Source: a virus
Taxonomy: Monodnaviria; Loebvirae; Hofneiviricota; Faserviricetes; Tubulavirales; Inoviridae
Strand: one strand, 5' to 3'
DNA length: 5,506 nucleotides
Virus record (IMG/VR): IMGVR_UViG_2571042056_000001
Span: 1 to 5,506 of that record
Made by a program: the position numbers and the translations under genes. Positions 3,109 to 5,374 of this stretch are shown here, piece by piece. Numbering within the stretch: the stretch's first letter is position 1; each line of letters opens with the position of its first letter. The notes beneath the pieces are model-generated. The model worked only from the letters and a program-made list of their open reading frames with translations, had not been told where the DNA came from and did no database searches.

Positions 3109-4320
3109 ATGAAATTATTTTATATCATAATAGTGGTATTTATGATTCCACCTGCATTATCAAAAGGCGTTATACTGAATCTCTCAGGATTAACGCTTAA
3201 TGATGCCATTACTTTGTTTTATACTGAAGTTATGAGAAAACCGTTCATGGTTTCTCCTGAACTTATCACGGACAAACGACAAGTTAATTTCAATATTACG
3301 CCAGATATGGATGAGTATACGTTTATTATGCGTTATCTCCAGAATGCCGGAGTCTCTGTAGCCAGAAAAAATGGTGTGGATTACTTTTATCTCCAGGAGA
3401 AAAAAGTATACGAAGCCCCGAAATATTCTTTTGTTTACACACCACAGTACCGTTCTGTTGCTTATCTGGCTGATATTCTTCAGTCACAAGTGAGCGGGTC
3501 ATTTTCAAATGGTGGGCAAATAGGGAATGGCGATGTTTCTCCTGCGATGATTAAAGACAATACCGCATCCGATTTTTTGAGCAGAAATGGGGATGTACTT
3601 GTTTTTTACGGTACGAAAAAAGACATTCAGCGGGTCGAAGATTTGCTTCCTCTTATCGACCGGGCCGCCGAAGAAGTTATTGTCGCCGGGTACGTGTTTG
3701 AGGTTCAGACGTCTGAGCGAAATGGTTCTGGCCTGGCACTGGCTGCCAAACTTATGTCGGGAAAATTCACAATAGAAACGGGTACTGCACAAGGACTCAG
3801 CAACTTTGTCCGTTTCAGTTCTGGATCGCTCGATGCACTTTATGAGTTGTTCAGAACAGACAGCCGTTTTCACGTCGTCAGTTCGCCACAATTGCGGGTC
3901 AGAAATGGCTCTAAAGCATCATTTTCTGTGGGATCTGACGTGCCGGTACTCGGTCAGGTCAGCTATGTTGATGGTCGTCCGGTTCAGTCCATTGATTATC
4001 GTTCAAGTGGCGTAATTTTTAACGTTCAGCCGCAAATCCGGGCTGCTACGATTGACCTTAATATTCATCAGCAACTGTCTAATTTTGCAAAAACAGAGAC
4101 TGGGGTGAATAACAGCCCGACGCTCATTAAACGGGAGGTGAACACCGATGTTTCGCTCAAGGATGGCGACATAATTTTACTTGGTGGTCTGGCTGAGAAT
4201 AAAGACAGTAATGCAGATACGGGCCTGTCATTTTTGCCGTCATGGTTCGGAACAACGGCAACTGAAAAAGCAAAAACAGACATCATTATTGTACTTCAGG
4301 CCAGAAAAATCAGGCGGTGA
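3109..4320 (+). CDS. Secretin, inovirus pIV-like outer-membrane export channel (403 aa)
   Basis: Start chosen at ATG 3109 (GGGGG RBS at 3099-3103, 1 nt after the pI stop) rather than track start 3061. Signal peptide MKLFYIIIVVFMIPPALS. C-terminal secretin-type region with the conserved-looking DGDIILLGGLAENKDSNADTGLSFLP segment followed by a short basic tail. Confidence 0.8.
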   Translation: MKLFYIIIVVFMIPPALSKGVILNLSGLTLNDAITLFYTEVMRKPFMVSPELITDKRQVNFNITPDMDEYTFIMRYLQNAGVSVARKNGVDYFYLQEKKVYEAPKYSFVYTPQYRSVAYLADILQSQVSGSFSNGGQIGNGDVSPAMIKDNTASDFLSRNGDVLVFYGTKKDIQRVEDLLPLIDRAAEEVIVAGYVFEVQTSERNGSGLALAAKLMSGKFTIETGTAQGLSNFVRFSSGSLDALYELFRTDSRFHVVSSPQLRVRNGSKASFSVGSDVPVLGQVSYVDGRPVQSIDYRSSGVIFNVQPQIRAATIDLNIHQQLSNFAKTETGVNNSPTLIKREVNTDVSLKDGDIILLGGLAENKDSNADTGLSFLPSWFGTTATEKAKTDIIIVLQARKIRR

Positions 4321-4329
4321 GAGCAGGGC

Positions 4330-4361
4330 GGCCAGCCCCGCAGCTCCGTGAGGAGCTGGCC
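4330..4361 (+). promoter_or_regulatory. GC-rich stem-loop just after the secretin gene (terminator, packaging-signal or origin-hairpin candidate)
   Basis: GGCCAGC (4330-4336) is complementary to GCTGGCC (4355-4361), and CAGCTCC (4341-4347) to GGAGCTG (4352-4358) with a GTGA loop; the arms overlap, so alternative foldings exist. Local GC richness contrasts with the AT-rich surroundings. No following T-tract, so not a classic intrinsic terminator. Confidence 0.3.
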
Positions 4362-4410: not shown

Positions 4411-4428
4411 ATTTGCGCATGCGCAAAT
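4411..4428. promoter_or_regulatory. Palindromic operator-like repeat, copy 1 (ATTTGCGCATGCGCAAAT, perfect 18-bp palindrome)
   Basis: Perfect inverted repeat read directly from the sequence, preceded by GTGAT. Ends 27 nt upstream of ATG 4455. Confidence 0.6.
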
Positions 4429-4454
4429 TTCTCGTCAATTCTTATGGGGAATCT

Positions 4455-4769
4455 ATGGCTACAAAGTTGAAGTTTATCCGACTGAAAATTGAAGATGAGT
4501 TAATCCAGCCGGTTAATAATCTGGCAGGCATTCGCGATGAGTTAAAGGCCGACATAGCCAGTGAAATCGTTGAGTGGTATCTGAACCAACGAAAAGCAGG
4601 GCATGTACACATACGGTACTTCTCCAGTCCGAAAGGCTCAGATTATCAGGGGATCTGGTTCCATCCGGATACGATCAAACGAGCGAAACAGCAGGCCGAA
4701 GACGATCAACAACCGTTAAACCGACTGATTTATACGGCTCTGGCCCGTTACTTTGAACAATCGATCTAA
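4455..4769 (+). CDS. Hypothetical protein (104 aa); possible regulatory or partner protein of the downstream HTH gene
   Basis: In-frame ATG at 4455 with GGGGA 4 nt upstream. The longer track ORF (GTG at 4317) would run through the GC hairpin and palindrome copy 1, so the shorter start is preferred; ATG 4419 inside the palindrome is another alternative. Mixed charged, non-hydrophobic product (MATKLKFIRLKIEDEL...RLIYTALARYFEQSI) with no motif I can assign. Confidence 0.5.
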   Translation: MATKLKFIRLKIEDELIQPVNNLAGIRDELKADIASEIVEWYLNQRKAGHVHIRYFSSPKGSDYQGIWFHPDTIKRAKQQAEDDQQPLNRLIYTALARYFEQSI

Positions 4770-4785
4770 CATGCTCAAAGTGATA

Positions 4786-4803
4786 ATTTGTGCATGCGCA
4801 AAT
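4786..4803. promoter_or_regulatory. Palindromic operator-like repeat, copy 2 (ATTTGTGCATGCGCAAAT, one mismatch), abutting a -10-like TGATAAT
   Basis: Same motif as copy 1 with C to T at 4791. Preceded by AAGTGATA, giving a -10-like TGATAAT (4781-4787). Ends 24 nt upstream of ATG 4828. Confidence 0.6.
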
Positions 4804-4827
4804 CCGCATCTGACAGGATGATTAGTT

Positions 4828-5094
4828 ATGCAGCAATTTGATGTGTCTCATCCGGGCGAAATTATTGCCAGAGAGTTGGCTGAGATGGGCATTAGTGTTA
4901 ACCGATTTATCGAAGAAACTGGCATCCAGCCAGCTTTTTTAGAAGGGAAAATGGCGTTAACCGCTGAGCAGGCCGTTCCGATCGTAGCAATAATGGGAAG
5001 CACTCCTGATTTTTGGTTACGTCTTCAGTATGCATATGATCTGCGACAGCAGAAAAATAAAGCAGAAGCAGGCAAATATGACGATCACAGCTGA
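4828..5094 (+). CDS. higA: HigA/XRE-family helix-turn-helix DNA-binding protein (88 aa); antitoxin-like or phage repressor-like
   Basis: Product MQQFDVSHPGEIIARELAEMGISVNRFIEETGIQPAFLEGKMALTAEQAVPIVAIMGSTPDFWLRLQYAYDLRQ... carries the N-terminal HPGE motif, an HTH core and the GSTPxFWLxLQxxYDL signature typical of HigA/VapI-type proteins. RBS AGGA 9 nt upstream. The symbol is a family-level assignment, not proof of antitoxin function. Confidence 0.8.
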   Translation: MQQFDVSHPGEIIARELAEMGISVNRFIEETGIQPAFLEGKMALTAEQAVPIVAIMGSTPDFWLRLQYAYDLRQQKNKAEAGKYDDHS

Positions 5095-5257
5095 AAAAAT
5101 TGAAAAAAGTTTGAAGCAGGTCAGACGTGAACGGGATGCCTGGGAAAACAGCACATCCCGTACAGGCATAAATCAATATAGACTGATGTGTATTCTTGAG
5201 TCCTTACTGGAAGATCTTGGACCAGAAGGCATCGATATCCAGGATGAAATTAAGTAA
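5078..5257 (+). CDS. Small hypothetical protein (59 aa) overlapping the 3' end of the HTH gene
   Basis: ATG 5078 lies in frame inside track ORF 5030..5257 and overlaps the HTH gene by 17 nt, suggesting translational coupling. Charged, helical-looking product (MTITAEKIEKSLKQVRRERDAWEN...). Weak RBS; the track start at 5030 is an alternative. Confidence 0.35.
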   Translation: MTITAEKIEKSLKQVRRERDAWENSTSRTGINQYRLMCILESLLEDLGPEGIDIQDEIK

Positions 5258-5260
5258 GAG

Positions 5261-5276
5261 TTTGCGCATGCGCAAA
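5261..5276. promoter_or_regulatory. Palindromic operator-like repeat, copy 3 (TTTGCGCATGCGCAAA, perfect 16-bp core)
   Basis: Perfect 16-bp palindrome immediately after the 59-aa ORF stop. Ends 23 nt upstream of a GTG (5300) that follows a consensus AGGAGG (5289-5294). Confidence 0.6.
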
Positions 5277-5358
5277 TTGACGGTGCTTAGGAGGTATCGG
5301 TGAAAATATTCAAAATCGACGTCACGTAGGTTCTGCCACAAAATCGAGTTTAAGTGAT

Positions 5359-5374
5359 TTTGCGCATGCGCAAA
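5359..5374. promoter_or_regulatory. Palindromic operator-like repeat, copy 4 (TTTGCGCATGCGCAAA, perfect 16-bp core)
   Basis: Perfect 16-bp palindrome preceded by AAGTGAT, the same upstream flank as copy 2. Ends 32 nt upstream of ATG 5407, which opens a frame running to the window end. Confidence 0.6.

Follow-up and report, generated by a model that had tools for sequence, protein, structure and literature searches.

The window, by which we mean the whole 5,506-nt stretch of DNA analysed here, encodes inovirus genes (g3-like, DUF2523, Zot, and secretin genes) and corresponds to the end of an E. coli inovirus prophage with dif as its integration site. Among 5,426 complete E. coli genomes, 9 carry this DNA in the chromosome, and tandem copies are frequent. 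The element of strain EC4 adjoins hipBA, and its borders are an exact dif site and dif-like hybrid sites. The gene order in EC4 runs from minus-strand cargo genes and a minus-strand 177-aa HTH repressor through Rep (Phage_CRI/G2P_X_C), the ssDNA-binding protein, the coat and assembly genes, and the secretin to p104, a HigA-like gene, p59, two more palindromes, and attP. The accessory module begins past a hairpin (4330-4361) downstream of the secretin gene g4, and the palindromes that concern us flank accessory genes at this attP end of the phage. The attP/dif-like site itself lies about 160 bp past the end of the window (L001:15269). The features of the window are as follows:

3109-4320, plus strand: g4, secretin, the last core inovirus gene (gene annotation)
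4411-4428, no strand: copy 1, an 18-bp palindrome ATTTGCGCATGCGCAAAT, with the start codon of p104 27 nt downstream
4455-4769, plus strand: p104, a 104-aa TraY-like tandem ribbon-helix-helix (RHH) protein, the best phage-encoded candidate binder (AF2 and Foldseek)
4786-4803, no strand: copy 2, an 18-bp palindrome ATTTGTGCATGCGCAAAT with one mismatch, with the HigA-like start 25 nt downstream
4828-5094, plus strand: HigA-like 88-aa protein whose recognition helix lacks four residues (alignment and model)
5078-5257, plus strand: p59, a small helical protein whose gene overlaps the end of the HigA-like gene, a paralog of the p64/p91 that adjoin dif in relatives
5261-5276, no strand: copy 3, with GTG 5300 23 nt downstream
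5300-5358, plus strand: decayed remnant of the p60/p62 ORF, a 9-codon stub and a conserved 3' end (comparison with relatives)
5359-5374, no strand: copy 4, kept together with its upstream flank in Buttiauxella locus L038
5375-5506, plus strand: internally deleted remnant of a p64/p91-type gene, extending to the attP/dif-like site
4412-4427, 5261-5276, and 5359-5374, no strand: exact 16-mers TTTGCGCATGCGCAAA (motif match)
4787-4802, no strand: the 16-mer with one mismatch, TTTGTGCATGCGCAAA (motif match)

The region from 4411 to 5374 thus holds four copies of one 16-bp palindrome, three of them exact. The first-pass annotation, which had the letters of the window and their open reading frames only, had called this recurrence genuine and far above chance. 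Both statements hold: 0.03 matches are expected by chance, and four were reached in none of 200 dinucleotide-preserving shuffles of the window. The gaps it gave to ATG 4455, ATG 4828, GTG 5300, and ATG 5407 are correct, but the notion that each copy precedes a start codon stands for the first two of these codons only. GTG 5300 opens the 9-codon stub of an ORF that is whole (60-62 aa) in relatives L148 and L151, and ATG 5407 is not the homologous start, as intact homologs of the last ORF (p64 in L151, p91 in L038) start 13-14 nt past the palindrome. The last two accessory ORFs of the window have decayed through deletions, and the stop codon of the p60/p62 remnant forms the GTGAT flank of copy 4. 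A GTGAT flank is confirmed at copies 1, 2, and 4, and it fits the consensus T-G-A-(A/T) that flanks 46 exact copies of the palindrome on the plasmids described below, which suggests that phage and plasmids share the same extended site.

Relatives of the prophage in Salmonella and in metagenome assemblies were reached via homologs of p104 and of the HigA-like protein, and the Buttiauxella locus was reached via the motif itself. Identity of the 16-mer across the E. coli, Salmonella, and metagenome relatives is 96-100%, compared with 44-76% in most of the 30-nt flanks; the exception is the upstream flank of copy 4 (98%), which encodes the end of the p62 ORF. Apart from a T variant of copy 2, the 16-mers of the relatives are exact. 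The position of the palindromes is conserved as well, with a distance to the start codon of about 14-27 nt in the phage relatives. An exact copy occupies the position of copy 1 in L148, L151, L145, and L147, in all phage relatives 26-27 nt separate copy 1 from the p104 gene behind it, and p104 follows it in all eight related phage loci, L145-L147 included. The layout is intact in L151, where copy 1 precedes p104, copy 2 the HigA-like gene and p59, copy 3 a 62-aa ORF, and copy 4 a p59 paralog of 64 aa with dif behind it; in the Buttiauxella locus the counterpart of copy 4 precedes a 91-aa ORF that ends at dif. A search of IMG/VR for relatives of p104, HigA, and p59 returned the same phage only, and among annotated phage and plasmid records none was related to the accessory region, save for a short yddM-like match. 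To judge from this pattern of conservation, the palindromes are selected sites of the protein-binding type. Since a repeated, selected palindrome of this type is found just upstream of several small transcription units, the proposal that one protein gates several promoters is still the best general reading.

The protein encoded directly behind copy 1 belongs to a family that comprises, in a search of all protein representatives, a small set of proteins of roughly 100 aa. The AF2 model of p104, computed from the family alignment, has a pLDDT of 95.5 and the order β-α-α-linker-β-α-α. Its top PDB matches in Foldseek are chains of 104-120 residues from the F relaxosome (TM 0.70-0.74), followed by single-chain Arc and AvtR, and the profile of the family gives weak RHH sequence matches (ORF56, omega, CopG, Arc, and ParG) that are consistent with this fold. 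On the strength of the model we confidently predict that p104 is a TraY-like, single-chain, tandem RHH protein. F TraY is a monomer with the full fold of an RHH dimer; its monomers bind as a train in direct and inverted orientations, contacting the major groove via β1 and β2, and its sites at oriT are imperfect direct and inverted subsites (PMC12117103). The p104 protein has the same single-chain double-RHH fold, and its plasmid homologs are encoded at a traY-like position before an F-type transfer operon. However, its sequence is not recognisably similar to that of F TraY (7-11% identity over aligned columns), its gene is part of a phage accessory module, and its candidate site is a perfect 16-bp palindrome present in many copies. 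Arc, MetJ, CopG, and omega of pSM19035 form RHH repressor/operator systems with repeated short sites. As in these systems, a small RHH protein is encoded directly behind a putative operator located between promoter and ribosome-binding site, with several promoters per protein; p104 differs from them in being a single-chain pseudo-dimer, and its putative operator in being common to a phage and to plasmids.

The connection to plasmids is illustrated by the Yersinia ruckeri plasmid pWKY, which encodes a 38%-identical p104 homolog before its F-type transfer operon and carries 11 exact and 2 near-exact copies of TTTGTGCATGCACAAA, that is, of the window motif with one symmetric change per half. The altered half-site of copy 2 in the window is identical to the half-site of this Yersinia variant. 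On the six Enterobacteriaceae plasmids examined, the exact 16-mer of the window is the commonest perfect palindrome, with 5-8 exact copies per 25-41 kb examined and 10 on a complete 54.7-kb Enterobacter plasmid. The hosts are E. coli, Enterobacter, Citrobacter, Salmonella, and Buttiauxella, and the KorB proteins are 43-100% identical to the KorB of the E. coli plasmid. In PLSDB the family comprises 41 conjugative MOBF/MPF_F plasmids of Enterobacterales, including a Yersinia branch with the symmetric variant. A p104 homolog is present in 41 out of 41, including that most divergent branch, where it is 34-37% identical, and p104 is the only DNA-binding family common to the plasmids and the E. coli/Salmonella phage clade. 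The first-pass annotation had asked whether the motif is confined to the phage or a repeat of the host. It is not a genome-wide host repeat, but neither is it private to the phage, being a signature repeat of this conjugative plasmid family.

The exact site is also found in other filamentous phages. Of the 20 IMG/VR contigs that match the motif, a number close to chance expectation, six are inoviruses from three lineages; the Yersinia variant, used as a matched control, returned 16 contigs and no inovirus. The three lineages are the dif-integrating E. coli/Salmonella clade, an episomal Ff-like phage of Cronobacter, Salmonella, and Citrobacter (L006), and Aeromonas prophages (L008, L010, and L017). 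In the Ff-like phage the exact site is located between genes II and V, and in the Aeromonas prophages it overlaps the start codon of g3. Two additional copies in L010 are contained in an insertion of about 55 bp between a packaging-signal-like hairpin and the plus-origin nick motif. Homologs of p104, HigA, and p59 were not found in these four phages.

It is possible, at what we judge to be somewhat less than an even chance, that the palindromes are operators of a regulatory system shared with MOBF/F-type plasmids, and that p104 binds them and represses four accessory units. The units would be p104 itself, the HigA-like gene with p59, p62, and p64, the latter two being decayed in this window. 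Each site would be located between a weak -10-like element (GTGAT/GATAAT) and the ribosome-binding site of its unit. Scans with the sigma-70 consensus returned no promoter upstream of the phage genes or of the plasmid parA, and the promoters are for this reason to be regarded as putative. Each 16-bp palindrome would accommodate two p104 monomers in inverted orientation, with one on each half-site TTTGCGCA, and the paired β-strands of the monomers would read the major groove, which would block the initiation of transcription. In this way the protein would be both an autorepressor and the repressor of three downstream units. Since the same site recurs on plasmids with genes for a p104 and a KorB homolog, the regulators of phage and plasmid would be expected to cross-talk when both elements are in one cell.

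The choice of p104 as binder is tentative, and its main rival is the plasmid-encoded KorB acting in trans. The plasmids encode a protein with the KorB DNA-binding domain (PF08535) together with a ParA partner, and one or two palindromes precede parA-korB in six out of seven plasmids. Two plasmids have a copy inside korB; pWKY has two copies upstream of parA and the KorB-domain gene and one inside korB. This arrangement recalls the KorB operator (OB) network of IncP-1 plasmids such as RK2, whose OB site is the 13-bp sequence TTTAGCSGCTAAA. In both cases a perfect palindrome occurs about ten or more times around the plasmid, upstream of parA(incC)-korB and of other operons, with some copies inside genes, and the plasmid encodes a KorB-domain protein and a ParA partner. 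The two networks differ in the site itself (16-bp TTTGCGCATGCGCAAA versus 13 bp), in the MOBF/MPF_F backbone, in that KorB is here only a candidate binder, and in that the same site is also found in filamentous phages that encode no KorB. If the palindromes were KorB/ParB-type sites comparable to OB, then those in the phages would matter only with a plasmid in the same cell, where they might bring about the plasmid-dependent silencing of accessory genes or the ParA/KorB-driven partition of the replicative form, and p104 would itself be one of the regulated genes. We regard this explanation as rather doubtful, but several observations speak for it or against p104. The plasmid copies are dispersed (7-13 per plasmid, some intragenic), which is more typical of KorB/ParB, whereas the phages have only 2-4 clustered copies; no palindrome was found upstream of the p104-like gene itself on the plasmids; and a perfect 16-bp palindrome suits an HTH dimer. 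The Ff-like and Aeromonas phages carry the exact site but encode neither p104 nor another candidate binder, and a KorB reading in trans explains their sites. The 41 PLSDB plasmids with the KorB lineage are also those with the p104 homolog, so that presence and absence among plasmids cannot separate the two; KorB co-occurs with the palindrome equally perfectly. Divergence leads to the same impasse, as the variant palindrome accompanies both the most divergent p104 homolog and the most divergent KorB (32% identity), with the whole backbone diverging in parallel, and the putative DNA-facing β-strand residues of p104 show no clean co-variation with the C-to-T change in the operator. What argues against KorB is that no phage encodes it. 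Neither a KorB nor a ParB gene was found in the prophage or its relatives, the E. coli plasmid lineages are rare (in one and three of the 5,426 genomes), and neither of them occurs in any of the nine E. coli genomes that bear the prophage, even though conservation of the prophage sites is perfect. Continuous selection of this kind is best explained if the phage supplies its own binder. In addition, plasmid pKL53-S has no copy upstream of parA, where other inverted repeats could serve as KorB/ParA operators, and a search of PLSDB found no Aeromonas plasmid of this family.

Two further explanations are less probable. The first-pass annotation had assigned the array to the immunity or lysogeny circuit of the phage, with the 88-aa HigA/XRE-like protein as a dimeric HTH repressor of all four palindromes. 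Copy 2 does lie just upstream of the HigA-like gene, and the protein is a clear homolog of a DNA-binding protein, the HigA of Proteus vulgaris (E about 1e-22 to 4mcx/6chv). However, the residues that align to T37-V38-S39-R40 of Proteus HigA are missing. In that protein Arg40 makes the sole base-specific contact, while T34, T37, and S39 contact the backbone (PMC12266136). The third helix in the AF2 model of the phage protein is only four residues long, and the deletion is fixed in the phage clade and absent from a 57%-identical relative. L145-L147 lack the HigA-like gene but keep two exact palindromes, one before the p104 homolog and one near attP, and a profile search found no HigA-like homolog on the plasmids. 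The HigA-like protein is an unlikely binder because of its recognition-helix deletion, its short third helix, and the relatives that keep the palindrome without the gene. The assignment to an immunity circuit fails on position: in 29 kb of L001 no match with up to three mismatches was found in the intergenic region between the divergent 177-aa repressor gene and rep, nor anywhere else outside the accessory module, and 13 kb of E. coli flank contained no copy. We consider a HigA-controlled immunity circuit highly improbable; the sites are neither part of the lysogeny switch nor, in all likelihood, operators of the HigA-like protein, and are predicted to control accessory genes instead. This corrects the guess, natural from annotation, that a "HigA antitoxin" is the regulator. 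The comparison with the O1/O2 operators of the Proteus vulgaris hig locus points the same way. The 88-aa protein is a homolog of HigA and its gene follows a palindrome, but here the recognition residues that include Arg40 are deleted, relatives have the operator without the gene, and no gene for a HigB/RelE-like toxin is adjacent (p104 and p59 have no toxin-family match in Pfam or PHROGs).

The palindrome could also act as a nucleic-acid structure, either a hairpin in the entering ssDNA that serves as promoter or priming signal, or a hairpin at the 5' end of an mRNA. Frpo and ssi are ssDNA promoter and priming signals of plasmid leading regions, and such a role is relevant here because plasmid T-strands and inovirus genomes both enter cells single-stranded. 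In the plasmid leading regions the copies are part of a repeated cassette of about 200 nt with a strong ssDNA fold (-52 kcal/mol, z -5.4), the extra copies in L010 are found between packaging-signal-like hairpin and nick motif, pairing between copies 3 and 4 is possible in ssDNA, and RNA would accommodate the copy 2 mismatch as a G-U pair. Against these observations, the hairpin is weak (about -5.5 kcal/mol), the phage contexts have z values of +1.6 to -2.7, copies 2 and 4 are not in hairpin form in the MFE fold, and many plasmid copies are located outside any cassette and inside genes. Sequence-specific recognition by a protein predicts what is found, namely that all 16 positions are conserved, including those of the loop, and that the variant is changed symmetrically at two positions. 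A structural role therefore strikes us as improbable, though less so than the HigA circuit.

Other candidates were rejected. An intrinsic terminator or stable RNA hairpin is not indicated at the window copies, where the fold is about -5.5 kcal/mol with a z near zero and no T-run follows. A host repeat of the REP/BIME type would be expected to recur within genomes, and among the matches listed from 185,579 species genomes we see single copies at about chance frequency in unrelated phyla. The halves of the palindrome contain TGCGCAT, like the XerC arm of dif, but a XerCD-related site is not supported, as a central region is lacking and the distance to attP varies from 170 to 390 bp. A cassette-recombination site is likewise not supported, as the endpoints of the deletion in the second of the tandem prophage copies do not coincide with palindromes. 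As for a host factor, YddM is a chromosomal HigA relative to which the phage protein is 37% identical, and the region upstream of yddM has no such palindrome.

The palindrome appears to be an operator-type site previously undescribed in the searchable literature, where the only matches concern the eukaryotic NRF1 motif; a search for these plasmids, or for KorB sites in filamentous phages, found nothing relevant. Multi-copy palindromic operators are a familiar kind of element, and here one site links two kinds of mobile elements: a 16-bp sequence that organises 41 plasmids of clinical Enterobacterales is also placed in three lineages of filamentous phages, before accessory genes or within core regions. 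With a shared binder, plasmid carriage and phage behaviour would be coupled through transcription or partition. Going further, one could imagine that at least three filamentous-phage lineages each acquired the exact operator- or centromere-like site of F-type plasmids, by which they sense, are silenced by, or hitch-hike on KorB-ParA, and that p104 could conversely reprogramme the plasmid regulon, for example the pilus or transfer genes. We consider this scenario unlikely as a whole; if it were true, there would be a regulatory link, unrecognised so far, between pilus-encoding plasmids and ssDNA phages that possibly depend on them. The sites also define a ready-made regulon, open to testing, in a plasmid family that is still uncharacterised, and would give an equally uncharacterised TraY-like protein family a function.

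A coupling of this kind would bear on conflict and cooperation between phages and plasmids, on superinfection control, and on the acquisition and regulation of cargo genes by inoviruses. With regard to acquisition, the plasmids have a VapB-like gene behind a palindrome cassette, and part of the phage p82/p91 family is similar to the tail of this gene. This likeness suggests that the accessory module, together with its operators, may have been acquired from such plasmids.

In the Aeromonas prophages the palindrome lies over the likely start of g3 at the following positions:

L010, 3891-3906: palindrome over the g3 start
L017, 5579-5594: palindrome over the g3 start
L008, 7759-7774: palindrome over the g3 start

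The ATG at the centre of the palindrome is likely the g3 start codon in these phages; the predicted product begins MRKF..., a signal peptide, and a GGGAG ribosome-binding site is located 8-9 nt upstream of this ATG. Given this likely start, any protein bound at the palindrome would cover the translation start of g3. Comparison of L010 (6880-6940) with L008 (10740-10790) and L017 also reveals, in L010, an insertion or replacement of ~55 bp that introduces two palindromes, flanked on one side by a hairpin resembling a packaging signal and on the other by the plus-origin nick motif ctttaatagtggactcttg. This segment is absent from relatives whose Zot proteins are ~97% identical.

In the window, copies 3 and 4 (5261-5374) are both perfect palindromes, so that when the phage genome is single-stranded one copy can base-pair with the other; the minimum free energy fold forms a 16-bp stem around 82 nt (z -2.05). 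Copy 2 (4787-4802) carries a single mismatch, C to T at position 5, which makes this half-site identical to that of the Yersinia plasmid variant. The mismatch is kept in the Salmonella relatives and is absent from the related phage locus L151.

The chromosome of E. coli EC4 (L001) harbors a tandem array of the prophage at dif (6268-22724). The cargo of prophage copy A is a phrog_17621 gene, and that of copy B is a DUF2971 gene together with an MltR-family regulator. Copy B has suffered a deletion spanning from about codon 89 of the secretin to about codon 25 of p59; palindromes 3 and 4 are retained. The attP/hybrid sites of the array (15269-15301 and 6268-6300) read GGTGCGCATAA-(11 nt)-TTATGTTGAAA, with XerC-like and XerD-like arms; the central region of ~11 nt, compared to 6 nt in dif, is unusual among Xer substrates.

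One member of a small helical protein family, for which databases give no annotation, always directly adjoins the dif/attP site, and this adjacency gives a hint that the family may take part in integrating or excising the phage by the Xer pathway. The members of this p59/p64/p91 family are encoded at:

window, 5078-5257
L151, 2991-3185
L147, 9382-9576 (related phage locus)
L038, 7533-7808 (Buttiauxella locus)

The last of these genes is also among the antitoxin-like accessory genes of the phages:

window, 4828-5094: HigA homolog
L145, 2901-3149 (related phage locus)
L038, 7533-7808

The HigA homolog is without a recognition helix, and the likeness of the p82/p91 proteins to plasmid VapB is confined to its toxin-binding C-terminal tail. 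These genes look like antitoxin fragments minus the DNA-binding parts, and their products may act as decoy antitoxins against TA-based defence.

The conjugative plasmids that carry the palindrome have further conserved features:

L159, 18791-19146, with equivalents in L161, L162, L164, L165 and L157: parA upstream region with extra inverted repeats
L159, 34160-34460, 36310-36540 and 40430-40730: three repeats of a GC-rich cassette in the leading region

The two additional conserved inverted repeats upstream of parA (GTAACA-N6-TGTTAC-like and ATGATA...TATCAT) are probably operators for other plasmid regulators. The cassette, of ~200 nt with the palindrome at its centre, has a very stable single-stranded fold (z -5.4) and recalls the single-strand promoters found in leading regions. 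The plasmids also have a second, more divergent p104-like paralog of the tandem RHH type (L157:36475-36828; L159:11717-12157), which is located directly upstream of the first p104-like gene and heads the transfer operon. The eight near-copies of the palindrome in an unrelated Bacteroidales MAG contig (L100:122-284), arranged in tandem with a 21-bp period, are probably a tandem repeat unrelated to the phage site.
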